Part shown: positions 26,173 to 59,101 of the stretch, one piece after another
Layout: every line of letters starts with the position of its first letter
Position numbering within the stretch: the first letter of the stretch is position 1
NCBI GenBank assembly: GCA_963810755.1
Contig: CAWEOP010000006.1
Span: forward strand, 465,057-529,056
Direction: 5' to 3'
Length of the DNA stretch: 64,000 bases
DNA from: an uncultured Gammaproteobacteria bacterium
GTDB taxonomy: Bacteria; Pseudomonadota; Gammaproteobacteria; Steroidobacterales; Rariloculaceae
Translations under genes and position numbers: made by a program
The notes under the pieces: model-generated
Databases searched by the model: none
Told to the model about the DNA's origin: nothing
The model's input: only the letters and a program-made list of their open reading frames with translations

Positions 26173-27845
26173 ATGACTCACAGAAAGATCACGCGCAAGG
26201 ATTTTCTGCGCCGCGCAGGGCGCTGGCGTAGGCGGCCTGTTGGTGGGCTCGGTGCTGCCGTCGCAAAACGTGCTGCGCGCGCAGCCGCGCGACGCGCGGC
26301 CGAACGTGCTGTTCATCTGCATGGACCAGCTGCGCTCGTGGCTCGACTTGCCCGAGAAGCTGCCGCTGCCGTCGTTCCGGCGGCTGCTGCGCGAGGGCCG
26401 TGGCTTTCGGAACTATCACGTGCACCAAGCGCCGTGCGGCCCGTCGCGCTCGACGTTCTACACGGGCCAGCACATCCAGAAGACGGGCATGTACACGAAC
26501 CCGGTCGGCGAGTTCGGCGAGTACTCGGTCGACGCGCCGCGCGGCGTCGAGCTGCCAAGCGGGCTTCCCGACGATCGGCACGATGCTGCGCGAGCAAGGC
26601 TACTACACCGCGTACAAGGGCAAGTGGCACTTGAGCGTCATCAACCAGAAGGTCGGCAAGAACGCGTTCCCGAACTCGATGAACTCGCTCGAGGACTACG
26701 GCTTCTCCGACTACAACTACGACGGCGAAGTCACACGGGCCTCACGTGGGCCGGCTTCGGCCACGACGGCGTCGTGACGGCCGAGTCGATCAACCTGCTC
26801 GAGCGTTTCGCGGCGGGCACGCACCGAAGGCAAGCCGTGGTTCCTCGCGGTGAATCTCGTCAATCCGCACGACATCATGTTCTTCGACGCCGATGGCGAC
26901 GGCGGCGGGCTCGTCGGCACGCCGACGCTCGGCGCGCCGGGCACGCCGCTCTACGCGAAGGACTGGGGCTTCGATCTGCCGCGCAGCTACCGCGCCGACG
27001 ATCTGTCGACGAAGCCGGCCGTGCAGCGAGGAGCTGTCGGGTTCACTCGAGGCCCGGCCGCTCACGGAGGCGCAGCTGCGCGTCTATCAGAACTACTACT
27101 TCAACTGCGTCCGCGACGTCGACCAGCACGTCGGCGCGCTGCTCGACACGCTCGACCGGCTCGGTCTCGCGCGGAATACCGTCGTCGTCAGTGACCGCGG
27201 ACCACGGCGAGCGCGGCGGCGCGCACGGCGGCATGCTCGGCAAGGGCGCGGACATATATAAGGAGACGCTGCGCGTGCCGCTGATCGTGCGTCACCCGGA
27301 CGTGCGCGGCGGCGGCCTCACCGACGCGCTCGCGGGCGGCATCGACCTCGCGCCGACGCTGCTCGGATTCGCGGGGCTTGAGCGACGCGGAGCGTGCACA
27401 GCGCTATCCCGATCTGCACGGCGTCGACTTGCGTGGGGCGATCGCCGACGCGCGCGCGCGCACGGCGCGCGACGCGCGCGGGATCCTGTTCAATTACGGC
27501 ACGCCGGGCGGATCGTGAACGACAAGGGACCGGTCGCGGGCAACACGACGCGCGGCCTGATCCGCGGCGTGTTCGACGGACGCTACAAGCTCGGCCGGTA
27601 CTTCCGCGCGACCGAGCACCATGTGCCGCGGGATTGGGACACGCTAGTCGCGCACAACGACCTCGAGCTCTACGACACCGCCGAGGATCCGGACGAGATC
27701 GTGAATCTCGCAGCGCGGCCCGACGGAGCAAAAAGCGCGGATACTGGAGCTCAACACGAAAGTGAACGCGTTGATCGAGACGGAAGTCGGAGCCGACGAC
27801 GGCGCGATGTACCCCGGACCCACGGAGCTGTACAACACCGTGTAG
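26173..27845 (+). pseudogene. Tat-exported arylsulfatase-family enzyme, frameshifted as assembled (about 8 frame changes)
   Basis: Tat signal RKDFLRRAG. PNVLFICMDQLR, formylglycine motif APCGPSRSTFYTG, GYYTAYKGKWHL, NLVNPHDIMFFD, VTADHGERGG...GKG, ...ELNTKVNALIETEVG...LYNTV*. Pieces lie in all three frames. Confidence 0.8.
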
Positions 27846-27874
27846 ACGGCGCGCCGCGAGCGCGGCGCGAACCG

Positions 27875-28252
27875 TCAGCTCGCGCGGCGCTCGACCTCGA
27901 GCGAGCTCAGCAGCGCCGACAACTTCTCGAAGTCCACGGGCTTGACGAGATGCCCGTCGAACCCCGCTTCGCGCGACTTGCGGCGGTCTTCGTCCTGTCC
28001 CCAGCCTGTCAACGCGACGAGCACGATGTTCCTTCCCCACGCCTGCTGCCGAATATACCGGCAGACTTCGTGCCCGCTCATCTTCGGCAAGCCGATGTCG
28101 AGCAGGATCACGTCGGGCCGATGCTTCTCGGCCTCGGCGACCGCTTCGGCGCCGTCATGGGCCGTGAAAGTCTCGTTGCCTTCGATCCGAAGCAGCATCG
28201 CGAGCGACACGGCGGAGTCCGCGTTGTCGTCGACGACGAGGATTCGCCGCAC
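27875..28252 (-). CDS. response-regulator receiver domain (stand-alone, or C-terminal REC of the upstream kinase)
   Basis: RRILVVDDNADSAVSLAMLL...PDVILLDIGLPKMSGHEV...ALTGWGQDEDRRKSREAGFDGHLVKP. The kinase ORF overruns it by 98 nt. Confidence 0.85.
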   Translation of the reverse strand: MRRILVVDDNADSAVSLAMLLRIEGNETFTAHDGAEAVAEAEKHRPDVILLDIGLPKMSGHEVCRYIRQQAWGRNIVLVALTGWGQDEDRRKSREAGFDGHLVKPVDFEKLSALLSSLEVERRAS

Positions 28253-30531
28253 CTCCGGCTTCGGGCGATCGGCAGCCGCGGGGAAGGTCGTCTACGCCGG
28301 CTTCCTCCGCCGGCACCGGCAAGCGGACGACGAACCGGCTGCCGGTTCCCAAACCCGCGCTGTGCGCCTCGACCTGGCCGCCGTGCATCTGCACGAGCCT
28401 CTTCACGAGCGTGAGGCCGATGCCGAGCCCGCCTTGCGCCTTGTCCGAGCCGCCATCCACTTGAGTGAACATCTCGAAGATGCTCTCGAGCTTGTCTCGC
28501 GGGATGCCCGTGCCGGTGTCCTGCACGGCCACGACGACGTCGTTTCCCTCCCGCTGCGCGCTCACCGTGATGCTGCCGCCGGTATCCGAGTACTTGCACG
28601 CATTGTTGAGCAGGTTACCGAACACCTGGGTGAGCCGAGCAGGATCGGCCTCCAACCAAATCGGCTCGGGCGGCAGCTCCAACCGGAGCTCGTGGCCGAG
28701 CGATTCGGCGAGCGGGCGGGACGCTTCGGCCGCCTGCTGAATCGCGGTCGCGAGCTCGACGCGGCTCGGCCGCAGCTCGAGCCGGTTGTGCGTGATGCGG
28801 TTCAAGTCGAGCAGGTCGTCGACCAACCGAATCATCTGCCCGAGCTGCCGCTCCATCGTGTCGCGTGCGCGGCGGACGGCGCCGTCGTCGTCCGAGCGCT
28901 TCCAGATCTCGAGGACGTTCGAGAGTGGCGCGAGCGGGCCGCGCAGCTCGTGTGCGAGCGTCGCGAGGAACTCGTCCTTGCGCCGGTCCGCCTCGGAGAG
29001 GTCGGCGGCCAAGCCGCGGAGGTTGTCCTCGAGCCGCCTCCGGTCGGTGACGTCTTGGCTCACGGTCGCAAACGCCGTCGGCCGGCCGTCGCCGTCTTGG
29101 AGCGTCAGCACCTTGTAGGCCATCCAGCGCGCTTCGCCGGTCTTGAAGTTGCGGAAGCGAACTTCGACCTCGCCATGGCCCTGTTCCAGAACCTTGGGGA
29201 AGAAATTCGTCGATCATCTTGGACCGATCTTCCGGGAAGAAGAAATCCCCGACGGGCACGCTGCGGGCCTGCTCCACGCTCTCGAGCCCGACCATCGCGA
29301 GGCCCGCGCGATTCACGAACGTCGGCACGCCTTGCAGATCGCAGATGCCGATGAAGTCGGTGCTCGTTTCGACGAGCGTGACGAACTTCTCACGCTCGGC
29401 CTCGGCTACGCGTTCGCGCATGATGTCGCGCACGATCTTCGACGCGCCGATGATGTTGCCGTCGTCGTCGCGCACGGGCGAAATCGTGAGCGCCACCCAA
29501 ATCCGCTGCCCGTCGGCGCGCAGCCGCTCCGTCTCGAAATGCTCGATCCGCTTGCCGGCCTTGAGGCTGGCAACGATCTCGTCTTCCTCGGCGATCCGCT
29601 CGGGCGGGATCACGAGGGAGATATGGCGGCCAATGGCCTTGTCGGCCGGATAGCCGAACAGGTGCTCGGCCGCGTCGTTCCAGGTCTGAATGACGCCGTC
29701 CAGAGACTTGCTGATGATCGCGGCGTCCGACGATTCGACGATCGACGCGAGCAACCGGGCGCCGAGTAGCTGGACCGCTTTGTCGCGCTCGCTGCGCCGC
29801 TGCGCCTCGACGTCGCGGAAGATCAGCACGCTGCCCGAGACCTGACCGTGCTCGTCGCGAATCGGCGCCGCGCTGTCGTCGATCGCGCGCTCGGTACCGT
29901 CCTTGCTGATGAGCAGAGTGTGATTCGCAAGACCGACGACGACGCCTTCGCGTAGCGCCCGCTCAGCGGGGTTGTCGACCGGCCGGCGCGTGCTCTCGTT
30001 GATGATTCGGAACACCGCGCCGAGCGGCTGGCCGAACGCGTCCTCGTGCGACCAACCCGTCAACGACTCGGCCACCTCGTTCAAGTAGGTGACGCAACCC
30101 TCGACATCGGTGGTGACCACGGCGTCGCCGATGCTGCGCAGAGTGACCCGCAATGTCTCCTGTCGCTCGGCGGCATGCCGCTGCGCGGCGCGCATCATCT
30201 CGCCGAAGCCGATGATCAGCGCGCAAGTAAAAAGATAGGCAGAGATTCCGACTACGTCGCTGACGTGCGCGAGCACGATCGTGCCGCGCGGCTCGACGAA
30301 GAGGTAGTCGCACGCGAAGTAGCCGAGCACGGCGACGACGGCCGCCGGCGCAAAGCCGCCCACCCACACCGCAGCTGCGACCGCGCCGTAAAGGGTGACA
30401 AGCGGCAGCGCGTCGCCCAGCAACGGATCGAGGGCCCAGCGCGCTAGGACGGCCACGGCGAGCGCCGCGAGGGAAAAGGCGAAGCCTTGCGCCGGGGTAC
30501 AGGTGCCGCCGCTTGGCCAAGGAATTCTCAC
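28155..30531 (-). pseudogene. PAS-domain sensor histidine kinase (DUF4118-like membrane N-terminus), frameshifted as assembled
   Basis: N-terminal part in ORF 28615..30531 (3 PAS-like blocks). Frame change at about 29196-29208 (GAATTTCTTCCCC). HisKA FLATLAHELRGPL and HATPase NLLNNACKYS...DTGTGI...GLGIGLTLV in ORF 28155..29123. Confidence 0.8.
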
Positions 30532-30592: not shown

Positions 30593-31051
30593 CTACTTCG
30601 GCGGAGCGGCGCCCGAGCCCGCGGCGGCGTCCGGCGCCTTGTCGTCCGGCTTACCCGTGCTCGGCGAGAGCCCGCCGAACCCGACCGTGAGCCCGTTCGC
30701 GGTGAAGGCCTGGATGAAGCCGCCGTCCGCGCCGTCGTGACGCGGCGCAATCAGGATCGATATCTTATCGCCCACCTTCACGGCGCCTTTGGTGAAGCCC
30801 GCGCGATAGAAATTGCTCGCGCTGTGCCCCTCATATTCGACGTCGCGAGTTCCTTTCTCGTCCGTCACCGAGACGACGGCGAAGGTATGGGGGTTCACCA
30901 CGTTGAACTCCTTGACGACGCCTTCGATCGTGACCTTTTTGCTGAAATCGAACGGCGCGGCTGAATGATGCGCCGTCGCGACCGCTGCCCAAAGCATGAG
31001 CGACGGAGCGGCGGTGGCCGCGACGACAAATTTCTTGATCATTGGCGACAT
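30593..31051 (-). CDS. stand-alone DUF6152-like secreted protein (HHS...NPH)
   Basis: GGGAGAG SD before ATG 31051. Signal ...LWAAVATA|HHSAAPFDF...VVNPHTFA. Pro/Ala/Gly-rich tail. Confidence 0.75.
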   Translation of the reverse strand: MSPMIKKFVVAATAAPSLMLWAAVATAHHSAAPFDFSKKVTIEGVVKEFNVVNPHTFAVVSVTDEKGTRDVEYEGHSASNFYRAGFTKGAVKVGDKISILIAPRHDGADGGFIQAFTANGLTVGFGGLSPSTGKPDDKAPDAAAGSGAAPPK

Positions 31052-31082
31052 ACGAGCTCTCCCAATCCAGTCTCGCAACACG

Positions 31083-31882
31083 TCATTCTTTCTCTTCGCG
31101 CGCTTTGTAGACGTCGCTCATCCGAGCATCGGCCGGCTTCCCGGCTTTCAACTGCTCGCGCCGCGTCTTGAGAAGCGCGAACCAGAACTCGTCGGGGCAG
31201 CGGTACGGAATGATGAATCCGTTCAAAGGCGCCCACTTCTTCTGCACCTTGATGGGCTCGGTGTAGTAGATCGGATCGTCATCGTCATCTCGTAGGAGAT
31301 GACCTTCGTTCCCTTCGCGTCCGCGCCGAGGGAGAACCGCTCGACGATCTTCGCCTCGTCGCTGCGCGGGTGCTGCATCTGATCTTGCCCGTCCGTGAGA
31401 TCGGTCGTCTCGACGACGAGCACGTCGGCTTCCCAATGTCCCGAGGAATAGCCTTGCCGGCTCGGCAGCCGCTTCTCCGGAGGAACCTGCCGATCGCCGA
31501 TGTAGATCCGGCGCAGCTCGCTTTCGACCTCGTAGATGATCGTCACCTGATCGGGCTTCTGGATGAACTCGATCGGATAGCCGCCGGCCTGCTCCATCAT
31601 TGACGGCATGCCGTAGTCGACGCAGTAGGCGGCGGGATTCGCGGCCTCGGGCCCCAACAGCTTCCGGTACTCGTCGTACCGGCGCCGGCCCTCGGGCGTG
31701 AACGGCTGATTGGGCGGCGTGCGGCCGAAGCCGCGCGGCGACTGTCCGGGCTCGACATACATCGTCCAGACGCCGGTGAAATCCGGCCGCTCCTTCTCAG
31801 CGGCTGGGTCGGCCCGGCCATGACGAGCAGCGCGCGCCGAAACAGCGACCGAGCCGAGAACCGTCAAACATTTCTGCGCCAT
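31083..31882 (-). pseudogene. secreted Cys-bracketed domain protein (family copy 4), one frameshift as assembled
   Basis: ORF 31223..31882: PDFTGVWTMY, YCVDYGMPSMMEQAGGYPIEF, GYSSGHWEADVLVVETTDL. Continues in ORF 31083..31436: DPIYYTEPIKVQKKW...IPYRCPDEF. Confidence 0.7.
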
Positions 31883-31935
31883 GCAATGCTCCCCCTACGC
31901 GCGCGCGTTCCCGCAGACTTTGCCGGTCGCGCCGC

Positions 31936-32753
31936 CTAGTACGGATTCGCGATCGGCGACTCTTGGCCGGAGAGCAGCGTGATGATCTTCGCACCCTCGG
32001 GCGTCAGTACGATCTCCTCCTCGATGCGCGCGGCCGAGATGCCGTCGGTGCGGGGCAGTAGGTCTCGACCGCGAACACCATGCCGACCTTGAGCTCGATC
32101 GGGTCGCGGAACGACGTGACGCGCGAGATGAGCGGACGCTCGTGCAGCCCGAGTCCCAAACCGTGGCAGAAGTTAAGGCCGAACGCGTCGATCTCGCTCG
32201 CGAAGCCGATCTCGTCGGCCGTCGGCAGCGCATGCGCCACCTCGTCGCTGCTCATCCCGGGTCTCAGCAACTCGATCGTCCGGTCCATCCACTCGCGTGC
32301 CTTACGATAGGCGGTGCGCTGCGGACTCGTCGCGCGGCCGACCGAGAACGTGCGGTAGTAGCACGTGCGATAGCCGATGAACGACTGGATGACGTCGAAG
32401 AACGCCTGGTCCCCGGGCCGGATCAAGCGATCCGTGAAGTTGTGCGGATGCGGGGAGCAGCGCTCGCCGGAGATCGCGTTGATCGCTTCGACATTGTCCG
32501 AGCCGAGATCGTACAAGCGGCTAGTCGCGAGCGCGACGATCTCCGATTCCTTCACGCCGGGCTTCAGCGCTTCGGAAATGTCCTGGTAAACGCCGTCGAC
32601 CATCGCGGCCGCCATGTTGAGCAGCGTGATCTCGTCGTGACTCTTCACCTCGCGCGCGTGCAGCATCGTCTGCTGGCCGTCGCGCACGTCGATGCCCGCG
32701 TTCTGCAGCTCGAACATCATCGGCGGCTCGATCACGTCCACGCCCACGGGCAT
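31936..32753 (-). pseudogene. M24 (creatinase/prolidase-type) metallopeptidase fragment: N-domain missing, 3' frameshift
   Basis: Catalytic 'pita-bread' half (SHDEITLLNMAAAMVDG...GYRTCYYRTF...HGLGLGLHERP...VFAVETY). An in-frame TGA lies just upstream of the first Met. The tail ...DGISAARIEEEIVLTPEGAKIITLL...NPY* is in another frame. Confidence 0.65.
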
Positions 32754-32791
32754 GTCGCCGACGCCTTCCGCATCAGTTCAAATCATCGATC

Positions 32792-33103
32792 GTGACGGAG
32801 TCGTACACCTACGAGCGCCAGCAGAGCTCGTTCGCCGTGGCCGGCATCCAGGCCGGCAGCTCGACGGTCTCGATGAGCCGCGTCACGGTCGCTGTCGACG
32901 GCGTCCTCGTCACGGGCGATTGGGAGCCGCAGACTCTCGAGAGCACCACCGCGAAGAACTTTCGGCGCGGCACTGACGTGCCGGCCGCGGTCACCCGCAA
33001 CAAGTTGTTGTTGAAGCTGCCCGACGGCAGCGTAGTCACTACCAAGATCGTCAAGCGCGAGAAACAGAAGCCGCCGCATCTGAGCGGCAGACCGCACGAC
33101 TGA
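32792..33103 (+). CDS. orphan hypothetical protein (103 aa)
   Basis: No recognisable motif. Called only because third-codon positions are overwhelmingly G/C in this frame (read by eye) and the peptide is not Arg/Ala junk: TESYTYERQQSSFAVAGIQ...LLKLPDGSVVTTKIVKREKQKP. Confidence 0.4.
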   Translation: MTESYTYERQQSSFAVAGIQAGSSTVSMSRVTVAVDGVLVTGDWEPQTLESTTAKNFRRGTDVPAAVTRNKLLLKLPDGSVVTTKIVKREKQKPPHLSGRPHD

Positions 33104-33172
33104 TCCGATTCGGTTGCCCCGCGTGCGGCGGCGGCCGACACGGCGTTCATGCGAGGCCACATCTCGATACCG

Positions 33173-34140
33173 ATGCGCACGTTACTTATGATGTCTCGCG
33201 GCGCTCTGCGTGCGAACGCTCGGGCGCAGACGCCTGCACCCGCGCAAGCGCCTCTGACCGTCCCGAACGGTCTGCCGGCACGGTGCTTTCAACATCCCGG
33301 ATCCCGTGCAGCCCAATGCGCCGCCGATCACAGGCACGGTCCGCGTGCCGGGCAGCACGAAGGAGTACGACGCCGCGGCCATCGCGGGCAACGCCAATCC
33401 GCCGGACTGGTTTCCCGACGAGCACCCGCCGGCACCGCAAGTGGTTGCCGGCCCGGCGCCGAATGCGTGCGGCTCGTGTCATCTCATGTCGGGTCAAGGC
33501 CACTCGGAGTCGGCCGACATCGCCGGCAGCTCCCACCGAATACCTCATTCGACAAATGAGTGACTTCAAAAGCGGCGCGCGCAAGGAGGAGACCAGGATG
33601 GGGCCGATTGCGCGCGCGACGTCGGACGACGATGTCCGACTCGCAGCGGCGTATTACGCGGCTATCCGGCCGATCCCGTTCGTCAAGTAGTCGAAACGGC
33701 CACGCCGCCGAAGACCTACGTGAGCGTCGTCGCGCGCCACCGCATTCTCGCGCCGGACGGCGGGACGGAGCCGATCGGCCGGCGTATCGTCCAGATTCCC
33801 GAAGACCCGTTTCGCACGAATATTCGCGACCCGCGCTCGGGCTTCATCGCTTACGCGCCGCCGGGAAGCGTTCGCCGCGGAGAGGGGCTCGTGAAGACGG
33901 GCGACGGCGGGAAGACCGTTCCGTGCGGAATGTGCCACGGCGATGCGCTCCTCGGTGCTCGGTGAGGTACCGCGTCTCGCCGGCATGCAACCCGTCTACA
34001 TCGCGCGGCAGTTGATCACGATGCAAAACGGCACCAGCGCCGGCGCGAAAGCGGCGCCGATGAAGGAAGCCGTCGCGAAGCTATCGGAAGACGACATCAT
34101 CGCGATCGCGGCTTACTTAGGCTCGCTCCCGCCTCGCTGA
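33173..34140 (+). pseudogene. di-heme c-type cytochrome, frameshifted as assembled (at least 4 frame changes)
   Basis: Heme motifs CGSCH (ORF 33306..33563) and CGMCH (ORF 33720..33965). Linking pieces YLIRQMSDFKSGARK... and PRLAGMQPVYIARQLITMQNG...DDIIAIAAYLGSLPPR*. Confidence 0.7.
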
Positions 34141-35298
34141 GCGGGATCGCTGCCGCCCATTCGCGTGCGTCCAGCGCTCGTCAGTCGAGGCCAACAACTG
34201 CTCGACCACCGTCGCGACGGGAATTACGTGCCCGTACTCGCCGACGTTCACCAAGAAGGAGACTCGCTCCGTCATGTACTCCTGGGTGCTCGCAGAGTAG
34301 ACCTCCTTGGCGGCGAGGCCTTTCACGCCGGAAAAACAACAGTTGTCGAATTCATTGTAGATCTCCACGTGCCTGCGACGCGGCTGAAAACCGCCCGCCG
34401 CTTCGTAGAGCGCTTGGTAGCTCAGCAGCCGAAATACGTGTGGACCGTATTGTTCCCAGTCGCCGAGGTCGTCCGTCCCGTCGAGGTCCGGTGTGCGCAG
34501 CTCGATCGGCAAGGTTCCCCGCTACGCTCACGGATCTCGTTATTCTCCAGTCCAACGCGGCGTAATTCGTCGTCGCCCCACCGCCACCACTGCGACCGGT
34601 CATGTGAATGGTTCGATACTTCGGCCCGAGATAATCGATCGCGCGATTGATGTGATTGAAGAAATACGCTAGGGCCGACTCACCTGGTTGATCGACGGAG
34701 CAAACCAGTTGTGCAGCTTGCCGGTGTAGGTGGTTCCGTTGAAATCGATCGTCTGGCCGCAGTTCGTCGCCAATAGGGGCATATCGAGGTAGAGGACGTC
34801 TGCGCGTTCGAGAACGCGTGCGATCAGGTCATTCGCGTCCGGCAAGACGTATCCGCCATACGCGCGAGCGACGTGCATGCCATGTGGCCCTCGTGGTAGA
34901 TGACGAGGACGTCGTGCCTCGTCGAGAACAGGAAAGCACGATAGGTTGTCCCGAGCGACTGTATCTGGAGCTCATCGCAAATCGGTGGTGTCAGCAGATC
35001 GGGGATTTGTTCCTCGTGCTCGGAGCAAGAGGAGGACAACACCGTTCCAGAACTATCTCGAACGAGACCTTCCTGGCGCAGTGTGTTGCGCGTCTGCACT
35101 GCACGGCGCTCGCCTTCTGGCGCTGTCGGGCGTTCTGTCCGGCCAATTCGTTTGAGCCACCTGACTCTGTGCAGCTGCCTGCGGTTGTTCCTGTTGCTTT
35201 AGATCTTCTTGTGCCACAGCTTCGCAGCCGGCGACGGCGACGGCGACGAGAGAAAGCACTAGAGCGTCCAACCTAAACCGAGAATCCATGACCGTCAC
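34117..35298 (-). pseudogene. alpha/beta-hydrolase-like lipoprotein in a lower-GC patch, frameshifted as assembled
   Basis: Lipobox LVAVAVAGC (ORF 35053..35298). Pieces VLVIYHEGH, HVARAYGGYVLPDAN..., nucleophile elbow IHMTGRSGGG (GxSxG), ...EYGHVIPVATV. At least 4 frames used. The 3' end is uncertain. Confidence 0.5.
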
Positions 35299-35540
35299 GA
35301 GATCTTCCCAAGCACCAAAACCGGTCCGAGACTTTATGTCGTATCGCCGCGCTGAGACTGTGCAGCGCTTCGCGGTCTTCCCGCGGCGAAAAGGATCGCC
35401 GTCACACTTTTCCGACAGGATTGTTTCGCGAAACAGGTGCGATAGTTAGCCGGCTCTATTTGGCGGTCCGCGGAGGGGCGGGATGCGCGTGTGCTACCGC
35501 CGCAGTCACGGGGTGGCTATGATCGGCGCCTCTGTAGCAA

Positions 35541-36533
35541 ATGAGACAACGCATGCGCACGACACTCGCCTTTCGCACTTACTTACTCTGCGTTCTGATC
35601 GTGGCGAGCGGTCTCGGCTTGCGGGACGCGGTCGCACAAAGCGCTCCGCTCGCGCAGAGCGCCGCCGCAGCGCAAAGCGCGGCGAGCTGCGACAACGCCT
35701 GCCTGAAGGGCTTCGTCGACGGCTACATCGACGCGCTCTCGCATCGCGACGCCACGAAGCTGCCCGTGGCCAAAGAGGTGAAATACACCGAGAACGGCCG
35801 CGTGCTCGATCTCGGCGAAGGCTTCTGGCACACGGCCGGCGCGCCGATCCCCTATCGCGACTACATTCTCGATCCGAGCACGGGCAGCGTGGCCGTTTCA
35901 CGGCGCTGAAGGAGTACGACGCCACCGCGGAGATGTTCGTGCGCCTGAAGGTCGCGAGCGGCAAGATCACGGAGATCGAGACGTTCGTCGTGCGCGTCGG
36001 CGACCAGCGCTGGTTCGCGCCGCAGAACCTCGAGCACCTGTCCGACATCTTCGCGCAGACGGTGCCGGCCGCGCGAGCGGCACACGCGCGAGCAGCTCGT
36101 CGCGACGGCCGAACTCGTATTTCGACGCGATCCAGACCGAGGGCACGCCGCAGTTCAAGCAGGCGCCGTTCGCACCCGGCATGAAGCGGTTCGAGAACGG
36201 CTTGCAGACCACGAACGTGACGGAGAAGCCGATCATGGAGCGCCACACGTGGAGCCCGGATCTACAGCTCGAGCGTGCGTCGTACAAAGGCACGATGGTC
36301 ATGGACCGGCGTCTTCCGATCGTCGACGTCGAGCACGGCACGGTGCTCGCCGTCGGCACGTTCCGGCGCGAAGGCCCGGATACTTCCACGCTGCTCTTGG
36401 CCGAGATGTTCAAGGTCACGGCGGCAAGCTGCGCGAGATCCGCGCGGTGATCCTGAACTTGCCGAACGGCGCTGGCACGGGTGGACGTCTTCGCATTGAC
36501 ACGCACCACGACTCGCCGCGAGCTCCGCGCTGA
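35541..36533 (+). pseudogene. secreted protein with N-terminal CDxxC, paralog of 56043..56981, frameshifted as assembled
   Basis: Signal + SCDNACLKGFVDGYIDAL...VKYTENG aligns with ACDRACLKSTLDSYLQAV...YRHTENA of the intact paralog. Later pieces are in two other frames. The 3' end is uncertain. Confidence 0.6.
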
Positions 36534-38672: not shown

Positions 38673-38847
38673 GCGAGCGCGCGGGCGATCGCCTAAGGAC
38701 GCGCCGCGCTCGCAGACTCGACGACGTCGCGTTGATCGTCGGCTACGAAGATTCGGGCGGGTCGCGTAGGCGTGATTGGACGACTAGTCGATCTCGTCTG
38801 GAGCAGCGCGTGCGGATACTCGGTCCGCGCGCTGTTGCCATTCCCGT

Positions 38848-39314
38848 TCATCGCGTTGCAGCCGTCTCCGGATCACGGCATGCACGTGCGCGACGAGCCT
38901 CATCTCCCGCGTGCCGAGTCCGCTGTAGTGCGATCACCCATGAGAATTCGCACGCATGCGTCGCAGCCAACTCGCGCCGCCCCCCGCGGTGTCAGCGCAA
39001 TGCGGATCGAACGTCGGTCGAATGGATCGGGCAAGAGCTCCAGCAACCCCGCGCGCGCCGCTACGATAACGCCTTTACGCGCGGCCTGCTTCGATACGCC
39101 TAGCATGCGCGCCACTCCGAGATCGATGGATCGCCGCCGACTGCGCTCGAGTGCGGATAGGAGGCGGTACCGCGCGTCAGTCCGAAACACGAGCTCGCCG
39201 CGCGTCGCCGCGGGCCTTTTGCATCAGCTCCGCGGTAGCCGCGATCTCGCGGACGAACTTGACGGCCTCGTTGCGCCAGAGTTTCCCGGCGTATCGCCGG
39301 CGCTCGCGATGCAT
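38848..39314 (-). pseudogene. MarR-family regulator, frameshifted as assembled
   Basis: Core in ORF 38900..39190: DARYRLLSALE...SIDLGVARMLGVSKQAARKGVIVAARAGLLELLPDPFDRRSIRIALTPRG. N-terminal helix (YAGKLWRNEAVKFVREIAAT...) and C-terminus are in other frames. One shift is at a G6 run. Confidence 0.5.
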
Positions 39315-50688: not shown

Positions 50689-52153
50689 TTACTTCTTCTC
50701 GTCGAAGTTGAAGAGATCCTCTTCCTTGGGCCGGTCCATGCCCTGCTCCCAGTACTTCTCCCAGATCTGCGCCCACGGCCGGCCGTAGATGTCGGGCACC
50801 TCGTACTCGATCACGTTGCCCGGCGACTCGGGCGTCGCGGTGCCCTTGACCGGGAAGATGGTTTGCACGCAGTCGATGAACACGTACGGATCGCCTTCGT
50901 CGAAGCCGCTCAGCTTCACGAAGTTGCGGACGATGCGCACGGGCTCCACCAGCGCCTCGGGATCGTAGAAGATCGCTTCGTGGTTGAGCCCCAGGAACTT
51001 GCCGCTCGCGTCGCGGTTCGGCGTGTAGATCTCGATCGTCTGCAGCTTGTTCGAGTGCTCGTACGCGGAGTGCACCTTCCAGCCCTGGATGTTCGACGTC
51101 CAGGTGATCAGCGTGTCCTTGTCCCAGAAGCCGATCGTCTCGCCGTACCAGCGCGGCACGTCCTGCCCCAGGCGCGGCACCGCGCCGTCCATGTTGAACT
51201 CGCGGCCGATGTGGATGTTGGTGATGAAGTTGCGCGCGACGCCGGCCAGGATCTGCACGAGCTCCGGCGTCACCATGATGTTGTGCTCCCACACCGCGGC
51301 CTCGTGCCAGCGGCGCATGAAGCCTTCGGGCCAGCAGTACTGCGACGGCCACATCGCCTTGTTCGAGTTGCCGTGGTGGTAGGCCTCCTGGACCATCCGC
51401 GTCTGATACTCCGGCGTCAGCAGCGACAGGATCGTCGGCATCTGCACGTGCCGCATGCGGTACCAGTACTGGTTGCCCGGCGTGCGTCCCGGGTGCATGT
51501 AGCGGCCGTTCCATTCGTCCGGCAGCGTCTCGTAGGTGTGCTTCGTCGGGCCGCCGCGCTTCTTCGTCTCCGCGAGCAGTGCTTCGTAGTGTGCCTGCGC
51601 GGTCTTGAACGGATACGGGCTCACGATCGCTTCGCGCGGATAGTCGCGGTCGCAATAGCCCCACGCCGCCGAGCCGGGCGGGTGATCGCCGATCAAGCTC
51701 GAGCGGTTGCCGCCCCAGAGGTCTTCGATCGCGGCCGGGCTGTTGCAGCGGAAGTAGCGCGGGTCGGTCCAGAGCGCGCGATCCTTGTAGAAATCCTTCG
51801 ACGTGAAGAGGTCCACTGTCGAGCGGCTTGATGCCCGGAGGCGAGTCGCCGTTGCGCGCGGAGCCGAGGAAGAAGGGTTCCGGAGGCGGTCCGGCTTGTG
51901 CCGGCTGCCCGGGCTGCGCGCCCTGCCCAGGCCGCGCGGCTTGGCCGCCTTGGCCAGGTTGGCCCGGGCCGCCGGGCCCCTGGGGTCTGCGAGACGTCGC
52001 GCCTGTCATCTCGTATTTGTTGATGTCCGCGGCGAGCGGCGCAGCGCGGCCGACGCTCACGAAATCGATTTTGGCGACGGTTTGGCCGGTGGCAGACGAA
52101 CCGACCAGTCCTGCCGCGGCGATGGCCAGGACGCCCACTACGTTGTTCTTCAT
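50689..52153 (-). pseudogene. large member of the Cys-bracketed family (copy 8), one frameshift as assembled
   Basis: GGGGGA SD + MKNNVVGVLAIAAAG signal, P/G/Q-rich linker. Frame change near 51817. Then [26 protein letters not shown]...[11 protein letters not shown]...[22 protein letters not shown]...FIDCV (ORF 50689..51816). Confidence 0.75.
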
Positions 52154-52220
52154 GATTCCCCCGGGGTTGCTTCAGGCGCGTGCAGTCCCGGCGGATAGTA
52201 ATTTCAAACGCTGCGCGGCG

Positions 52221-54019
52221 TCACGAAGCCGACAAAACTTCGGTGTTCTTCGCGCGCCGATACTCGGCCAGGCCGAGGCGCTCGAGCAGCTCCGGGAAGC
52301 GCGCGTGCTCGCGCACGCGGGCAAACACCGGAAACCAGAGCCACGACAGGTTCATGTAGTAGAGGTCGACATAACCACGCCACAGTGCGTCGAACGCCGA
52401 GTCGACGTCGCCGTAGGCCGCGAGCCACCAAGCCAAGATCACCTGACCAGGCGGAGTCTGGTACTCAGGCGCACCCGTCGCGCCGCGTAGCTTCTCTAAC
52501 GCGCGCGGCGGATCCTCGCATACCGGGTAGACGTCCTCGAGGATCGGCGCGGGCTTCGTTTGGGTCAGATCGAGATAGCGGCGAAACTGAGCGCGAAACG
52601 GTTCGCTGCGCGCCCAAAGCCGGTGCAAGACGAGGTGCTCGACCATTTCGCGATCGCCGGCGAGATCTAGGCTCCGGCGATACTCCGTTTCCGCTTCTGC
52701 GTCGCGTCCCAGCATGATCGACAGCATCTGAACGAGCCCCGACATCTGCAGCGACAGCGGATCGCTGCGCATCGCCGCCCGAAAGTGCGCGAGGCCTGCG
52801 TCCAAATCGCCAATCGTCGTGCAGAAGATCCCGGTGTTGTACGGGATCTCCCACGGCGTGCCCGGCGCCAGCTCGCGCGCGCGCTCGAGCGCTCGCTCCA
52901 TCCCGCGCCAATCGCGCCGGAGGTGCAGAGGCCAACTCTGCGCCATGTGCGTCGCCCACCAGTGCGGCGCGAGCTCGAGCAGCTTCGCGACCGCTTCATC
53001 GATGTCCTCTGATCGCGCGAGCGCCGTGCTCCGGCGCGAAGATCAGTCGGCCGCGGCTCGTCGACGCGAACGCCAACCACGCCGCGGCGAAGTCCGGATC
53101 GCGCGTGACAGCCTCGCGGTACAGCTCCGCCGAGCGGACCATCGCGTAGGCCGCCGCTGTGGCTGGCAAGAGAGCGGGCGCGCAAGATACAGGTCGTACG
53201 CTTCGAGATCTCGCGTCGAGCCTTCGGCCAGGGCCGCGCGCCCTCGGCGAACGGCGTCGTGCCGACACCGAGCGTCGCGCTCAGTGCATTCGCGACGGCG
53301 CGCGCAATGTCGTCTTGGATCGCGAATATGTGCTCGAGCTCGACCGCGCGATCGAAACGCTCCGACCAAACCTGCGAATCGCCGGACGCGTCGATCAACT
53401 GTGCTGTGATCCGCACGCGCCCGCCGTCCCTGCGCACGGCGCCGGCCAATAGATAGTCGACGCCCAGGGCACGACCGATCGCTTGCGCGCTCTCGGCGCG
53501 GTCGCGAAATCGGAACGACGAGCTCTTCGCGATCAGCCGCAATCCCGTGACGCTCGCGAGCCGGTTCAGCACCTCCTCAGCGATCCCGTCCGCGAAGTAG
53601 CCTTGATCGCGCTCGCGGCTCAGATCCTCGAACGGCAAGACGGCGATCGACGGCTCGTGACGCCGCGCCGGCAACTCGGTCGCACGCGCTTGCGTCACCG
53701 TGACGGACTGCACGAATCGATAGCCGAGGCCTGACACCGTCTCGATGTAGCGATGCTCGCCCGCGCGATCGCCGAGAATCTGCCGCAGCGCGGAGATCGT
53801 GCGGCTCAGCGTGTTCTCCTCGACCACGGCGCCCTTCCACACCGCGTCGAGCAGCGCCTGCTTCTCGAGCAGGCGCCCGGGCCGCTCGACCATGAACAAC
53901 AGCGTGTCGTAGAGCCGGCGCGTGAGCTGAATCGGCGCGCCGTCGGCGGACGCGAGCGAGCGCTCGAGCCTGTTCAGCCGAAAGCTTCCGAACTCGATCA
54001 GCGAATCGTCTTTCGACAC
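52221..54019 (-). pseudogene. second wHTH + TolB-N-like + TPR regulator (paralog of 15578..17608), frameshifted as assembled
   Basis: GTG 54019. FGSFRLNRLERSL...IQLTRRLYDTLLFMVERPGRLLEKQALLDAVW...ETVSGLGYRFV. IAVLPFEDLS...YFADGIAEEVL. TPR part spread over ORFs 52996.., 53043.. and 52221..52946. No TM helix seen. Confidence 0.75.
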
Positions 54020-54146
54020 GTTCGAGGCCCAGCCGAATTTTTTCCGAAAAGTATCCGGTCGCCGGCAAAGACCGTGGGACCGCGGCGCCGTAAGAGTAGC
54101 GAACGGTCGAGGGGACCGGAAGCGGATCGATGGGAGGAGCGCTGCC

Positions 54147-55014
54147 ATGAGCACACACGGGGTTCGACGAACGCTTCGATTACGGGCCTGGGCACTACGG
54201 CCGGCCGCGGCGGCGGCCGTCGCCGCGGCTTATGGGGTTGCCGGCCCGGGCGCAGTTTCCGGACGTGCTATCGGCGACCGAGTGTCCGGGTTGCGCTGAC
54301 CACTTCGCGGGTCAGCAGCGCTTCGCGGGCACGTGGAGCTCTGCACTCACGTCGTCGGACGATCCCGAATGGACGCTCACGGACTTCTTATTGCGTCGTC
54401 GCGTGCACACCCGAGGCGCGCGCGGCCGCGACCGCACGGCTGACCGATCCCGCGAACGCGCATCGTCCCGGCGCTGGAGCTCTTGCCGCAGCGAGCTCCG
54501 AAATTCTCGTGCGACCCGCACGGATTCGCGTCCCAGGTGGTGTCGCCGCTGCCGCTGCGGATCGAGCAGCATCCGGGCCACGTCGTGCTTCATTACGAAG
54601 AGTTCGGCGTCGAGCGAGCGATCTCGCTCGGCGGCCACGACGCGCCTTCCGCGAATCAACCGCACTCGTTCGGCGTCTCGAAGGGACGGTTCGAGAACGG
54701 CGCCTTCGTCGTGGAGACGAGCCACATCCCCGCGGGCCGGTTCCACGACAGCTTCGGCGGCGCACCGCACAGCGATGGACTGCGCGCGACCGAGCGCTAC
54801 ACGACTGAGCGACGACGGCGACTCGCTGTTCCTCGTGCTCGAGCTCGTGGATCCCGCGACGCTCAGCGAGCCTCTGATCTTGACCAAGAGCTGGCGACGC
54901 GCTCCGAACGCCGCGATTCTTCAGTACCGCTGCGACGTGATGTCCGGGCAACTCGAAGGCGTGCTCGCCGATTACCTCGATCCGGCGACACTCGACGCGC
55001 GGCGGCGCGAGTAG
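54147..55014 (+). pseudogene. secreted Cys-bracketed domain protein (family copy 7), frameshifted as assembled
   Basis: GGAGG SD + ATG 54147. QRFAGTWSS (GxW), FSCDPHGFASQVVSPLPLRIE, GVSKGRFENGAFVVETSHI, ...SEPLILTKSW...LQYRCDVMSG. Pieces in three frames. Confidence 0.65.
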
Positions 55015-56042: not shown

Positions 56043-56981
56043 CTAACGCGCCGGCGCCGCGGATGCCGCCGGCGCAGCGCCCGCCAACGGGAAATTGCCC
56101 TCGTACGGCGGCCAATTCGGCACCGGCCGCTCGGGTCCCGGGTAGAACATCGCCGTCCAGATGTCGCGTATCCGGCCGTCCTCGATCCAAAACCATTCGC
56201 TGAACGCATTGCGCGGCCGGACCGAGCCCGGCTTGCGGATGAACACCGCCATCCCGAGCACCACGCCCTGCTCGTCGTCGACGAGCGGGATGCGGCGGCC
56301 GGCGACGTTCGCAAGGTCGAAGCCCGCGAGCCCCGAGACGCAGTCATCGTTGTCGCCGTTGCGGCGCCCCGTAACGCGAGTGCCGTTCTCGTACCTGTTG
56401 CAGCCCTTGTGTGCGAGCACGACCTCGCCGTCGTGCGACGTGATGCCGTCGAAGTAGCTGCTCACGATCGCGATCATCCGGTCGCGCGGCAGCCGCTCGT
56501 TCGCGGGCAGCACGCGTTCCGGCGGAGGCGTGGCGGTGAGGCCGTCCGGGCTCCACAGGTTCGGCGGCGTCGCGCCCGGCAGCCCCGGATCGCCGTCGCG
56601 CGCGATGAACCATTCGGCTTCGGTGATCGCGCGGTTGTCCACGCGCAGCCGCGCCGTCACCACGGCGAGCTTGCCGCCCTCGTCGACGATGCCGTAGTAC
56701 GCCGCCTGCCCAGCGGTCTGATCGAGGTAGCGGCGCTGCACTTTGCCGAGCGCCGTGACGCTCTGCCAGACGCCTTTGCCGCGCGGCACGTTGATTGCGT
56801 TCTCGGTGTGGCGATAACCCACCGCGAGCGGCGCGGCCGCCGGGTCGTGCTTCACGACCGCCTGTAGATAGGAGTCGAGCGTGGATTTCAGGCACGCGCG
56901 GTCGCAGGCGGGCTGCGCGGGCTGGCCCAAAGTCGCGAGCGGGACTGCGATGAGCGCGAGGCACGCGGCGATGCGCTTCAT
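56043..56981 (-). CDS. secreted protein with N-terminal CDxxC (intact paralog of 35541..36533)
   Basis: MKRIAACLALIAVPLATLG signal. ACDRACLKSTLDSYLQAV... 312 aa. First gene of a three-gene same-strand cluster with the two membrane paralogs. Confidence 0.65.
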   Translation of the reverse strand: MKRIAACLALIAVPLATLGQPAQPACDRACLKSTLDSYLQAVVKHDPAAAPLAVGYRHTENAINVPRGKGVWQSVTALGKVQRRYLDQTAGQAAYYGIVDEGGKLAVVTARLRVDNRAITEAEWFIARDGDPGLPGATPPNLWSPDGLTATPPPERVLPANERLPRDRMIAIVSSYFDGITSHDGEVVLAHKGCNRYENGTRVTGRRNGDNDDCVSGLAGFDLANVAGRRIPLVDDEQGVVLGMAVFIRKPGSVRPRNAFSEWFWIEDGRIRDIWTAMFYPGPERPVPNWPPYEGNFPLAGAAPAASAAPAR

Positions 56982-57168
56982 GGGAAACCCCCGGTTCTTG
57001 CTATCCGCTCGATCGTACACGAACGGCCGTTTGGCGCGCTCGCCGACCGCGCGGACGCAAATGTCGCCACGCCGCGGAAAGGGGTCCGCTGAGTTGAAAA
57101 CTGCGGCCGTGCTACGCTTCCGACGGAGCGCGCCTCAGAGCCGCGCAACGATAACCGGGGGTCTACAC

Positions 57169-59101
57169 GTGCGCCGACGGAACGAACGGCTGCGGCCGTC
57201 ACTCGCCTTCCTGCTTCTCGCCACCAGCGCGGTGCCGCTGCACGCGCAAGACGCCGCGCAGTGGGGCTACTACTCCGCCGACAAGCACACGACGCGCTAC
57301 TCGCCGCTCGCGCAGATCGACAAGGCGAACGTCGCACAGCTGCGGATCGCGTGGCGGCACCCGCAGGTCGATCCCGCGATCATCGCGGCGAACCCCGACC
57401 TCACCGTGTCGAATCGCTACATGGCCACGCCGATCTACGTCGGCGGCATGTTGTACATTCCGAACGGCTTCGGCCTCGCCGAGGCGATCGATCCGAAGAG
57501 CGGGCGCACACTCTGGACGCAGAAGCCCCTCATCGCGGGACCCGAAGGGCTGCCATCGCTGATGATCAGCAAGGGCGTCGCGTACTGGGGCCGCGGCGAC
57601 GAGGCGCGGATCCTCACCGTTCGCCAGCAACATCTGTTCGCGCTGAATCCGAAGACCGGCTTGGCCGTAGCGAGCTTCGGCGACGGCGGCAAAGTCGAGC
57701 TCACGACGCCGGAGTTCCGCTACAAGTGGGCCGGCGTGCCGGTGGTCGCGGGCGACGTGGTGCTCGTCGGCTCGTCGATGCTCGAGCAGGACTCCGCCGT
57801 GTACAAGGATGGGCCGCCGGGCGACGTGCGCGCGTTCGACGTGCGCACGGGCAAGCTGCGCTGGGCGTTCCAGGCGATCCCGAAGGCCGGCGACCCCGCC
57901 ATCGCTACGTGGCAGAACGACTCGTGGAAGTACTCGGGCGCCGCCAACACCTGGTCGACGTTCAGCGTCGACGACGAGCTCGGCTACGTCTACGTGCCGA
58001 CGAGCGGCGGCACCAACGACATGTACGGCGGCCACCGGCTCGGCGACGACCTGTACACGAGCTCGATCGTGTGCCTCGACGCGAAGACCGGCGCGCGCGT
58101 CTGGTATTTCCAGACGGTGCATCACGACCTATTCGACTACGACAACCCGGCCGCGCCGATCCTCGTCGACATCACGGTCGACGGCCGCAGAATCCAAGCG
58201 CTCGCGCAGGTCACGAAGCAAGGGTTCGTGTTCGTGCTCGACCGCGTCACCGGCAAGCCCGTGTGGCCGATCGAGGAGCGCCCGGTGCCCGCGTCGACCG
58301 TGCCGGGCGAGGTCGCCGCACGCACGCAGCCGTATCCGACCAAGCCGCCGCCGTACGAGCGCCAGGGGCTCACCGCCGACGACCTCATCGACTTCACGCC
58401 GGCGCTGCGCGCCGAAGCGCTCGAGATCGTGAAGCGCTACGTGATCGGGCCGCAGTTCACGCCGCCGTCGGTCATCGACAAGACGCCCGGCGGCAAGCTC
58501 GGCACGATCCAGCTCGCGGGCGCGAGCGGCGGCGCGAACTGGAACGGCGGCGCGTTCGACCCGGACACCGGCATCCTGTACGTCGCCGTCGCGCACGGTG
58601 GCGTTCGTCGCGGATCTGTTCGCACCCGATCCCGCGCGCTCGGATCTGCGCTACCGCGCGGGCATGCGCGAGATCATGAACGGGCCGCAGGGGCTGCCGC
58701 TCATGAAGCCGCCGTACGGCCGCATCACGGCGTTCGACTTGAATCGCGGCGACCAGGCCTGGATGGTGCCGAACGCCGACGGCCCGCGGAACCACCCCGC
58801 GCTCGCCGCCTTGAAGCTGCCGCCGCTCGGCGACGCCACTCCGTCCGCCGTCATCGCGACGAAGACGCTGCTGTTCGTCACCGAAGCCGACAAGAGCACA
58901 CCGCGCTCGCCCGCGAACGTCGGCGGCACGAAGTTCAAGGCGCTCGACAAGGCAACGGGTGCGACGATCTGGTCGATCGATCTCGGTGTCGGTCAGAACA
59001 ACACGCCGATGACGTTCATGCACGACGGCAAGCAGTACGTCGTGCTCTCGGTCGGCAGCACCGACCATCCCGCGGAGCTCGTCGCGCTCGCGCTTCCGTG
59101 A
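57169..59101 (+). pseudogene. soluble PQQ-dependent dehydrogenase (glucose/quinate dehydrogenase-like propeller), one frameshift as assembled
   Basis: GTG 57169, signal ...[86 protein letters not shown]. Frame change near 58596. Tail in ORF 58598..59101. Confidence 0.8.

Follow-up and report, generated by a model that had tools for sequence, protein, structure and literature searches.

A cluster of redox and catabolic genes with broken frames

The window analysed here, a stretch of 64,000 nt from an uncultured gammaproteobacterium, carries a cluster of periplasmic redox and catabolic genes that comprises three PQQ dehydrogenases, including a quinohemoprotein, together with cytochrome-c proteins, an arylsulfatase, a hybrid histidine kinase, an aldo/keto reductase, an enolase-like enzyme, a 2-hydroxyacid dehydrogenase, and DUF6152 proteins. 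The features of this region and their frame breaks are the following:

24,991 and 25,579, no strand: two window-private single-base insertions, intergenic (against all five covering references)
26,173–27,845, plus: arylsulfatase gene, full-length once stitched, 9 private indels (indel list against short-read contig L002)
27,878–30,531, minus: hybrid sensor histidine kinase in three frames (Pfam on the stitched product; indels against L002)
30,628–32,771, minus: DUF6152 small protein, unknown protein of ~266 aa, and C-terminal part of an M24 (Xaa-Pro) peptidase
32,777–34,140, plus: cytochrome-c-containing protein, at least 8 private frameshifts (ortholog is a 470–508-aa ORF in a relative)
35,541–37,400, plus: unknown 303-aa protein and aldo/keto reductase, several frame switches each (frame path; events against contig L003)
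37,464–38,672, plus: enolase-superfamily (MR_MLE) gene, intact within the affected region (98.5% nucleotide identity to the relative)
39,589–40,748, minus: D-2-hydroxyacid dehydrogenase, one +1 insertion at 40,134 (frame path, reference alignment)
40,930–41,894, plus: DUF6152-containing protein of ~318 aa, two frame switches at ~41,611 and ~41,726
42,051–44,265, plus: quinohemoprotein alcohol dehydrogenase (ADH1; PQQ propeller and C-terminal cytochrome c)
44,149–46,435, both strands: three small genes of 250 aa (minus), 227 aa (minus), and 209 aa (plus; CHRD domain), compared with the relative
46,484–48,621, plus: second PQQ dehydrogenase (ADH2), +1 insertions at 47,240 and 47,264, 24 nt apart
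50,704–52,166, minus: unknown periplasmic protein, paralog of 59,9xx–61,299, one frame switch at ~51,816
52,245–54,130, minus: regulator with winged-helix (Trans_reg_C-type) N-terminus and TPR-like C-terminus, switches at ~53,008 and ~53,150
54,460–54,999, plus: C-terminal half of a protein homologous to one of 332 aa, one frame switch at ~54,800
57,104–59,105, plus: third PQQ dehydrogenase (ADH3), single +1 insertion at 58,586 (intact 643-aa ortholog in L086)

Combining a codon-usage frame tracer with alignments to six other assemblies of the locus, we find roughly 60 to 100 frame-changing indels at 26.2–58.6 kb and none in the remaining 31 kb of the window. The tracer, a Viterbi model trained on the flank ORFs, places ~29 same-gene frame switches in this interval and none in 1–26 kb or 58.6–64 kb; it labels several very densely frameshifted stretches “non-coding”, and the cytochrome-c-containing gene at 32,777–34,140 was scored in this way. 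In the reference alignments, 120 events of a length not divisible by 3 (80 net clusters) fall between 26,173 and 50,711, with five further ones at ~51,816, 53,008, 53,150, 54,800, and 58,586, the last of which is also the last event detected in the window. A uniform spread is excluded (at least 60 events in 32.4 kb versus 0 in the other 31.6 kb; binomial P < 1e-17), and within the affected region the density varies from patch to patch, between 0 and ~3% per base. The first-pass annotation had described frame breaks confined to this region, about 20 damaged genes, and clean flanks, and our data bear out all three points: switches and events fall solely inside the interval, the number of genes is upheld, and the window’s flank proteins are as long as the short-read members of their clusters. 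Where flank genes of window and relative differ by 1 nt (13,713, 18,470, and 18,643), the sensible protein is the window’s. The low-quality patch may begin before 26,173, as the two intergenic insertions at 24,991 and 25,579 would suggest; these have the same look as natural intergenic indels. Four junctions previously placed near 28,285, 29,200, 40,130, and 51,817 were recovered there by frame path and reference alignments, and a G6 run near 38,975, also named as a junction, falls inside a window-specific 870-bp insert without reference counterpart.

Damage to individual genes

The arylsulfatase carries +1 insertions at 26,217, 26,554, 26,819, 27,039, 27,189, 27,383, and 27,722, a +2 at 26,729, and a −1 at 27,516 (all against L002), close to the “about 8” frame changes first estimated. 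Its stitched product shares 89% identity with an intact protein of 554 aa (98% query coverage) and matches positions 1–297 of the 301 in Pfam Sulfatase. The histidine kinase has +1 insertions at ~28,290 and ~29,202 relative to L002; its stitched product contains DUF4118, three PAS, HisKA, HATPase, and REC domains, and the intact 884-aa protein P0179 matches it across three frames (residues 1–446, 443–757, and 747–884). Further downstream, −1/+1 events at 31,277, 31,804, 31,836, 31,965, 31,971, and 32,050 are private to the window, with all three covering references in agreement. The N-terminus of the M24 peptidase is absent because 1.3–1.6 kb present in L003, L087, and L088 are lost at 32,769/32,777. 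This window-specific deletion could be a genuine loss and is an observation that runs against a reading of the region as consensus errors.

ADH1 is the most densely hit, with 33 frame-changing events (20 insertions and 13 deletions) against an intact 734-aa ortholog (L003:12917–15121; Pfam PQQ and Cytochrome_CBB3), where “15 or more” had been estimated. About 30 of these 33 lie within 42,046–43,110; the clean stretch noticed earlier is real and comes next, at 43,115–43,850. Of the three small genes that follow, the 250-aa, 227-aa, and CHRD-domain ones have up to 16, 1, and 4 events, respectively, against the relative. The C-terminal 451 aa of ADH2 are 97.6% identical to the intact 721-aa short-read protein P0182; a third event in this gene, at 46,992, belongs to the relative, in which the gene falls into two pieces of 193 and 528 aa. 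The stitched product of 35,541–37,400 gives a Pfam match to Aldo_ket_red, and an intact 664-aa ORF of the short-read MAG locus L005 matches the regulator across three frames. Full-length intact counterparts comprise 554-aa sulfatases, 884-aa P0179, 734-aa ADH1, 721-aa P0182, 643-aa ADH3, and the 664-aa regulator.

Frame breaks in other assemblies of the locus

The indels are private to the window’s assembly: they are absent from the short-read assemblies of this locus, and other Nanopore assemblies carry different sets. Comparison of the orthologous loci yielded two independent short-read contigs without net frameshift, L002 and L089, the latter from another sample and 98.4% identical, with 0 net frameshifts in L002 coordinates. 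In the same coordinates, the Flye-style contigs have 11 (window), 8 (L083), 20 (L087), and 4 (L088) private frameshifts, with insertions making up 38 of the 43. MAG MFD00392.bin.2.65, to which both L083 and L003 belong, is from a catalogue that is Nanopore-only (Flye meta nano-hq and one Medaka round, no short-read polishing; PMC12313526), and Nanopore consensus indels below ~40x coverage are a known source of frameshifted gene calls (PMC9262707). The error sites of independent assemblies cluster (8 site pairs at most 10 nt apart versus 1.85 expected, P ~0.001), and at the single site common to independent assemblies the inserted sequences differ, which agrees with context-dependent miscalls and not with inheritance. 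Since the fragments of the broken genes are also public on the same 593-kb NCBI/ENA contig, the errors belong to the deposited assembly.

The references are at least 2% and mostly 7–10% divergent from the window, a same-strain assembly having not been found. The window is the outgroup to the other assemblies, so that its having private events would, taken alone, also be compatible with real lineage-specific mutations. That the fault lies with the comparison sequences and not with the window is hardly credible: the Nanopore references L003, L083, L087, and L088 do have errors of their own, but the broken reading frames are the window’s, and L002, L089, the intact L003 ORFs, and database proteins from many sources run full-length across its junctions. 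We thus consider this reading refuted, as we do programmed ribosomal frameshifting or other recoding that would restore the products, to which we give practically no credence. Recoding would account for frameshifts in otherwise conserved genes and nothing more, whereas there are dozens of events in the region, as many as 33 in a single gene, which shift the frame both ways and lie at non-conserved, non-slippery sites, and orthologs in other assemblies are not shifted at the same places.

Gene decay or consensus error

A periplasmic redox island that had genuinely and only very recently undergone mass pseudogenisation, with selection lost and real indels in about 20 genes, would agree with events private to the window’s lineage, with gene content that differs from relatives (including the deletion that truncates the M24 peptidase), and with dN/dS values that, averaged over a long branch, are compatible with very recent loss of constraint. 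Like the pseudogene clusters of Mycobacterium leprae and recent host-restricted pathogens (relaxed selection or reductive evolution), the window has many neighbouring frameshifted genes and one kb-scale gene-truncating deletion. Unlike these, it retains the codon-position and dN/dS marks of purifying selection. On frame-corrected genes, dN/dS is 0.14 for the arylsulfatase (with 0 new stops despite 9 frameshifts) and 0.23 for the C-terminal part of the histidine kinase (2 frameshifts), next to 0.05 for an FAD gene in the clean flank. Mismatches to L003 fall 209/159/583 on the three codon positions over 5,141 codons, and even ADH1, with 33 frameshifts in one 2.2-kb gene, has 67% of them at position 3 (23/20/88). 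New stop codons number 0 in 5,141 codons compared with L003 and 0 in 1,132 compared with L002 (~6,270 in total), so the earlier impression of few internal stops holds. The substitutions or stop codons expected from real decay do not accompany the indels.

An “indel-only” pattern, as initially described, is correct only approximately, because first- and second-position mismatches are also in excess in the indel-dense half of ADH1 (position-3 share 0.55 versus 0.85–0.95 in the clean parts). This dense part has ~30 indels per 1,045 aligned nt and ~35–45 mismatches above the 3.5–4.9% level of the gene’s clean parts, giving an indel to excess-substitution ratio of ~0.75. In bacterial pseudogenes, this ratio is expected to be roughly 0.05–0.2 and a deletional bias is well known; the window has far too many indels for its substitutions and, conversely, at least as many insertions as deletions (57:43 overall and 10:1 in sulfatase and kinase). 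Real single-base indels also concentrate in homopolymers, and the window’s events do not. Add to this that known Nanopore-only assemblies of the locus are similarly and privately damaged, that short-read ones are undamaged, and that sites cluster between independent assemblies, and mass pseudogenisation becomes highly improbable; indel density, insertion bias, lack of nonsense codons, and the other assemblies make “very recent decay” quantitatively untenable.

The link to homopolymer runs drawn in the first-pass annotation did not survive counting: at 100 single-base events, run lengths are those of the background, with run-length-1 bases involved in 75% of the insertions and 63% of the deletions (per-base background 63%). 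Some events, though not many, are located in runs (G6 to G5 at 42,046; run context at 29,202). The events resemble homopolymer errors of 454, Ion Torrent, or Nanopore R9.4.1 in being single-base and frameshifting, with a few in runs, but differ in their background-like run lengths. This departs from the textbook Nanopore error mode and speaks against consensus errors, as does the sharp confinement beside 26 kb of flawless sequence.

Closest to the window are the residual indels of Nanopore-only (Flye and Medaka) MAGs known from IDEEL-type tests and truncated or fragmented gene calls. These likewise are single-base indels that break conserved ORFs, are missing from short-read assemblies of the locus while other Nanopore-only ones carry private sets, and are attributed to Nanopore consensus at insufficient coverage (PMC9262707, PMC12313526). 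The differences are that the literature stresses homopolymers, that damage in the window is extremely patchy (26 kb clean beside up to ~3% indels), and that the technology of its contig is deduced; we infer that its source was itself a Nanopore-only assembly.

As to the local cause, the likely candidates are mixed strains and coverage that is low or patchy. That co-occurring strains of 90–98% identity, and not low coverage, were collapsed by the polisher into a mosaic consensus with spurious indels is a tentative possibility. Co-occurring strains at this locus are real, as one metagenome assembly (ERZ25039464) holds two contigs of it (contig_1534 and contig_25042). In addition, kb bins differ from the relative by anything between 0.7% and 14%, a mosaic, the dense ADH1 stretch has its position-1 and position-2 mismatches besides indels, and microdiversity was named a major problem in these soils (PMC12313526). 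However, relatedness to the relative changes at ~22 kb and not at the error boundary at 25–26 kb, and local indels of ~3% would resemble unpolished raw reads more than two good haplotypes blended. The cause suggested earlier, paralog-rich DNA that is hard to polish with short reads, finds no support: the only paralog pairs within the window are 75–77% identical, and the closest comparable assemblies are Nanopore-only and were never short-read polished (PMC12313526).

We therefore read the frameshifts, with a probability of about 0.93, as consensus errors in ~33 kb (roughly 25–59 kb) of a long-read metagenome contig, most probably a Nanopore-only one. Too little or too heterogeneous read evidence would have underlain the consensus in ~25–59 kb, and single-base insertions, deletions, and some substitutions would have outlasted polishing. 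Several independent lines of evidence agree with the initial lean towards long-read consensus errors and with its provisional treatment of pseudogene calls. Because the signature of selection is kept, new stops are lacking, short-read contigs are clean, Flye/Nanopore-style contigs carry private sets, and error sites cluster, we regard the frameshifts as almost certainly artefacts of assembly rather than signs of real decay. Judged from their sequences, the underlying genes appear intact and under purifying selection, and the apparent gene breakage in this organism is an ordinary finding.

Frame breaks and predicted gene content of the affected region

Open reading frame lists are uninformative at the G+C content of the window (64-72%), and we therefore traced the coding frame by codon usage, with codon log-odds trained on twelve long flank ORFs and a Viterbi path through the frames. 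This tracer finds about 29 same-gene frame switches within 26.2-58.6 kb and none in 1-26 kb or beyond 58.6 kb; several stretches that it labels non-coding are genes frameshifted too densely to be traced. Because tblastn over-extends through wrong frames in GC-rich DNA, nucleotide alignments to syntenic contigs were used instead of translated searches. Both approaches show that the counts and coordinates of the first-pass annotation, which had described frameshifts confined to about 26-59 kb between unbroken flanks, are essentially right, and the frame breaks are real and beyond chance. At single-base differences from its closest relative within flank genes, it is the window that yields the sensible protein.

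Window proteins on record come from a single 593,012-bp NCBI/ENA contig, and broken fragments of the affected region are on record from this same contig, so that the frameshifts are part of the deposited assembly. The naming of this contig is Flye-style, and its source is probably a long-read assembly. Its nearest relatives are Nanopore-only MFD MAGs, and in the species-representative collection no genome is closer than that of the MAG [quoted passage not shown] (hereafter the relative). A homolog look-up returned, by our count, six other assemblies of the locus.

Table. Comparison loci, with frameshifts counted against the short-read contig L002
L002: JGI contig from short reads, to which window 22,472-29,611 is colinear at 90.7% identity; reference
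L089: second short-read JGI contig, from a different sample than L002; 0 net frameshifts
Window: Flye-style naming, technology inferred; 11 frameshifts
L083: Nanopore-only MAG; 8 frameshifts; spans window 9.2-50.7 kb together with L003, both being pieces of the MFD00392 MAG contig
L087: Flye-style ENA contig; 20 frameshifts
L088: further Flye-style ENA contig; 4 frameshifts
L005, L006: loci from short-read MAGs in which synteny is rearranged
L086: carries the third PQQ dehydrogenase

Between 26,173 and 50,711, these alignments give 120 raw events of a length that is not a multiple of three (80 net clusters), some of them intergenic or belonging to the reference. Indels of 1-2 nt dominate, and 100 of the 120 are single-base events (57 insertions and 43 deletions). 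Twenty-six events are private to the window and backed by every covering reference. Left of 26.17 kb, the FAD, 204-aa and 110-aa genes show no frame-changing event against L002, and two of the 26 private events, intergenic insertions at 24,991 and 25,579, may place the left edge some 1.2 kb further upstream in the window. The most heavily affected gene is the quinohemoprotein alcohol dehydrogenase (ADH1), with about 30 events packed into 42,046-43,110 and a clean 740-bp stretch thereafter. Events further right lie at about 51,816, 53,008, 53,150, 54,800 and 58,586.

Full-length counterparts of every broken gene exist elsewhere. The stitched sulfatase aligns along 98% of its own length with intact proteins of about 552 aa at up to 89% identity, and stitched products contain complete Pfam domains across the junctions. 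Judged by these domains and counterparts, the frame-corrected region is a predicted periplasmic redox and catabolic cluster.

Table. Predicted content of the frame-corrected cluster
26173-27845 (+): arylsulfatase; intact counterparts of 554 aa; 9 frame-changing events against L002 (eight insertions, one deletion)
27878-30531 (-): DUF4118-PAS-HisKA-HATPase-REC hybrid kinase; counterpart P0179 (884 aa) needs exactly three frames to align with the window; 2 insertions against L002
42051-44265 (+): PQQ dehydrogenase ADH1; counterpart of 734 aa; 33 frame-changing events against this intact ORF in L003
46484-48621 (+): PQQ dehydrogenase ADH2; counterpart P0182 (721 aa), with 97.6% identity in the part downstream of the break
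57104-59105 (+): PQQ dehydrogenase ADH3; counterpart of 643 aa
Also in the cluster: DUF6152 proteins
M24 peptidase, N-terminally deleted in the window
Cytochrome-c protein
Aldo/keto reductase
Enolase-superfamily enzyme, intact
D-2-hydroxyacid dehydrogenase
CHRD protein
RluA-type pseudouridine synthase
Winged-helix regulator (regulator counterpart of 664 aa)
One of the three PQQ dehydrogenases has a C-terminal cytochrome c.

Consensus error or real decay

We conclude that the frameshifts are consensus errors and not a biological feature (probability about 0.93), as the first-pass annotation had suspected when it favored sequencing error over decay; this reading draws on the selection signature, the lack of new stops, the arithmetic of indels and mismatches, the dependence on sequencing technology and the clustering of sites. 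The dN/dS ratios that had been proposed as a check, calculated on frame-corrected genes, amount to 0.14 (sulfatase) and 0.23 (kinase). Mismatches over 5,141 codons, compared in Viterbi-consistent frames, split 209/159/583 by codon position, and those of ADH1 split 23/20/88 notwithstanding its 33 frameshifts. The third position holds 61-67% of mismatches, with a lowered share (0.55) only in the indel-dense half of ADH1. Genuine pseudogenes, in contrast, collect substitutions randomly by codon position with dN/dS drifting toward 1, and they carry nonsense mutations alongside their frameshifts, whereas 5,141 plus 1,132 frame-corrected codons contain no new stop codon.

Natural decay of bacterial pseudogenes involves several-fold more substitutions than indels, so that indels form a small minority of their mutations. 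The dense part of ADH1 departs from this, with about 30 indels in 1,045 aligned nt and only some 35-45 excess mismatches (a mismatch rate of 8.1%, where the clean parts of ADH1 have 3.5-4.9%). Codon positions 1 and 2 do show an excess there, and the third-position share is 0.55 compared to 0.85-0.95 in the clean parts. The stretch therefore resembles noisy sequence rather than a mutated gene. Deletions also outnumber insertions in genuine pseudogenes and multi-base deletions are common there, while insertions prevail among the single-base events of the window and reach 10 against a single deletion in the sulfatase and kinase compared with L002.

It is very unlikely, given these patterns, that the indels are real and stem from localized indel-biased mutation or from a loss of selection so recent that substitutions and stops had not yet accumulated. 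The inactivated unit would then be a ~33-kb periplasmic island of PQQ-dehydrogenase, cytochrome and sulfatase genes in one uncultured soil gammaproteobacterium, a scenario to which we give hardly any credence; if true, it would capture, unusually, an island just entering decay, but the evidence is strongly opposed. Programmed ribosomal frameshifting would be expected to use one conserved slippery site per gene in orthologs, and we instead find up to 33 sites per gene, none of them common to orthologs, and no common motif at the frameshift sites.

Sequencing technology and recurring error sites

The comparison with orthologous loci, also proposed beforehand, separates the assemblies by technology. 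In both short-read contigs the genes are intact with 0 net frameshifts, as seen in related strains that are about 91% identical to the window and not the same strain. Insertions account for 38 of the 43 frameshifts of the window, L083, L087 and L088 in L002 coordinates, and with one exception the sites are private to each assembly. The relative is broken where the window is intact, with an FAD protein of 321 instead of 552 aa, a disrupted 204-aa gene and ADH2 split into 193 and 528 aa. That both assemblies degrade at this very locus is an idea weakened by the errors of the relative in the flank as well.

The two contigs of the relative stem from the Microflora Danica long-read catalogue, which is Nanopore-only and was assembled with Flye --meta --nano-hq and one round of Medaka, without short-read polishing (PMC12313526). 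Below about 40x coverage, indels in Nanopore consensus sequences are known to produce frameshifted gene calls (PMC9262707). The pattern of the window matches such artefacts in its 1-2-nt indels, in sets of errors private to each assembly and in their absence from short-read assemblies. It differs in that Nanopore errors concentrate in homopolymer runs, and here the association drawn by the first-pass annotation did not hold: runs at event sites are no longer than background, with the affected base lying outside any run (run length 1) in 43 of 57 insertions (75%) and 27 of 43 deletions (63%) compared to a per-base background of 63%. Since short runs occur near almost any position at 68% GC, a run beside four out of five junctions is at chance level.

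Frameshift sites of independent assemblies cluster, with 8 pairs no more than 10 nt apart where 1.85 are expected (P ~0.001). The recurrent sites lie at L002 4177-4196, 4533-4538, 5012-5022, 5219, 6689-6702 and 7062-7073 (window ~26.7-29.6 kb), and most of the events are +1 insertions in non-homopolymer sequence. No k-mer at error sites survives multiple testing as a sequence or methylation motif. At a single site, window 27722 (L083rc 15145), the window and the relative have a +1 in the same sulfatase codon. There the window reads GACGGAG and the relative GCAGGAG, and the intact form has CTGGAG; the difference between the two inserts together with the site clustering argues for context-dependent miscalls and against an inherited mutation, for which the phylogeny would also demand homoplasy. 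We estimate that this coincidence arises by chance at about 9% and is otherwise a systematic miscall. More broadly, the recurrence may reflect a context-dependent weakness of basecalling or polishing in this high-GC lineage, and residual, mostly non-homopolymer +1 errors near the same sites could be of interest to polisher developers.

Confinement of the errors and variability of the locus

To account for the confinement of the errors to one stretch, the first-pass annotation had invoked paralog-rich DNA resisting short-read polishing, but the sole self-matches within the window are 75-77% identical, which speaks against paralog confusion, and comparable assemblies were never short-read polished. 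These self-matches are the pair 50704-51866 and 60135-61296 (76.5% nucleotide identity; a periplasmic protein with a 26-residue motif) and the pair 11983-12919 and 40974-41903 (74.6%; a DUF6152-containing protein), and both connect the affected region with the clean flanks. A chimeric join at the error boundary was likewise dismissed, as relatedness to the relative shifts at ~22 kb and not at 25-26 kb. One candidate is locally low or patchy coverage, by which near-raw assembler sequence would have escaped polishing; local indel densities near 3% would fit this. Another is a collapsed mixture of co-occurring strains, with which the presence of two contigs of the locus in one metagenome assembly and the mosaic divergence are compatible. 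These two contigs, L083 and L088 (contig_1534 and contig_25042), both come from ENA assembly ERZ25039464 and indicate that closely related cluster-carrying strains co-occur in one soil sample.

Divergence from the relative over window 9000-51000 is strongly mosaic, ranging from 10-14% at 9-21 kb through 2.8% at 23 kb (FAD gene) to 0.7-2.4% at 38-40.7 kb (enolase-like and 2-hydroxyacid dehydrogenase genes), and suggests that parts of the cluster may have recently recombined or been transferred between lineages. Segments 15637-17736, 20791-22129, 34140-35493 and 38717-39587 have no counterpart in the relative, so that, going by the alignments, closely related strains differ here in gene content. 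The segments contain, in turn, ORFs of 676 and 337 aa, a stretch of ~61% G+C with predicted minus-strand ORF fragments, and an insert of 870 bp in which a MarR-like fragment of 96 aa lies on the minus strand (38900-39190). Conversely, ~1.3-1.6 kb present in L003, L087 and L088 is missing from the window at 32769-32777, so that the M24 (Xaa-Pro) peptidase lacks its N-terminus and the adjoining cytochrome-c gene its start; this gap may reflect either genuine deletion or mis-assembly within the low-quality patch. Just beyond the affected region, a 33-nt tandem repeat (59234-59493; 7.9 copies, 82% match) lies in frame within the minus-strand ORF 59129-59668 and encodes the 11-residue unit LRGEMAxLGAx. 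A search for genomic-island markers found no tRNA and no Rfam family in the window. A recombining island that varies among strains, is shared by co-occurring populations and would degrade long-read consensus wherever it is present may underlie the error patch; the mosaic divergence of 0.7-14%, the differences in gene content and the presence of two strains in one sample would fit.

The value of this result is practical rather than biological. Consensus quality of long-read MAGs can drop locally beside flawless sequence, so that genome-wide quality scores can mask the drop, and metabolic reconstructions or pseudogene counts from this MAG would be wrong for the affected stretch. The approximately 20 apparent pseudogenes of this record, among them the three PQQ dehydrogenases, the sulfatase and the sensor kinase, are not to be taken as gene loss.
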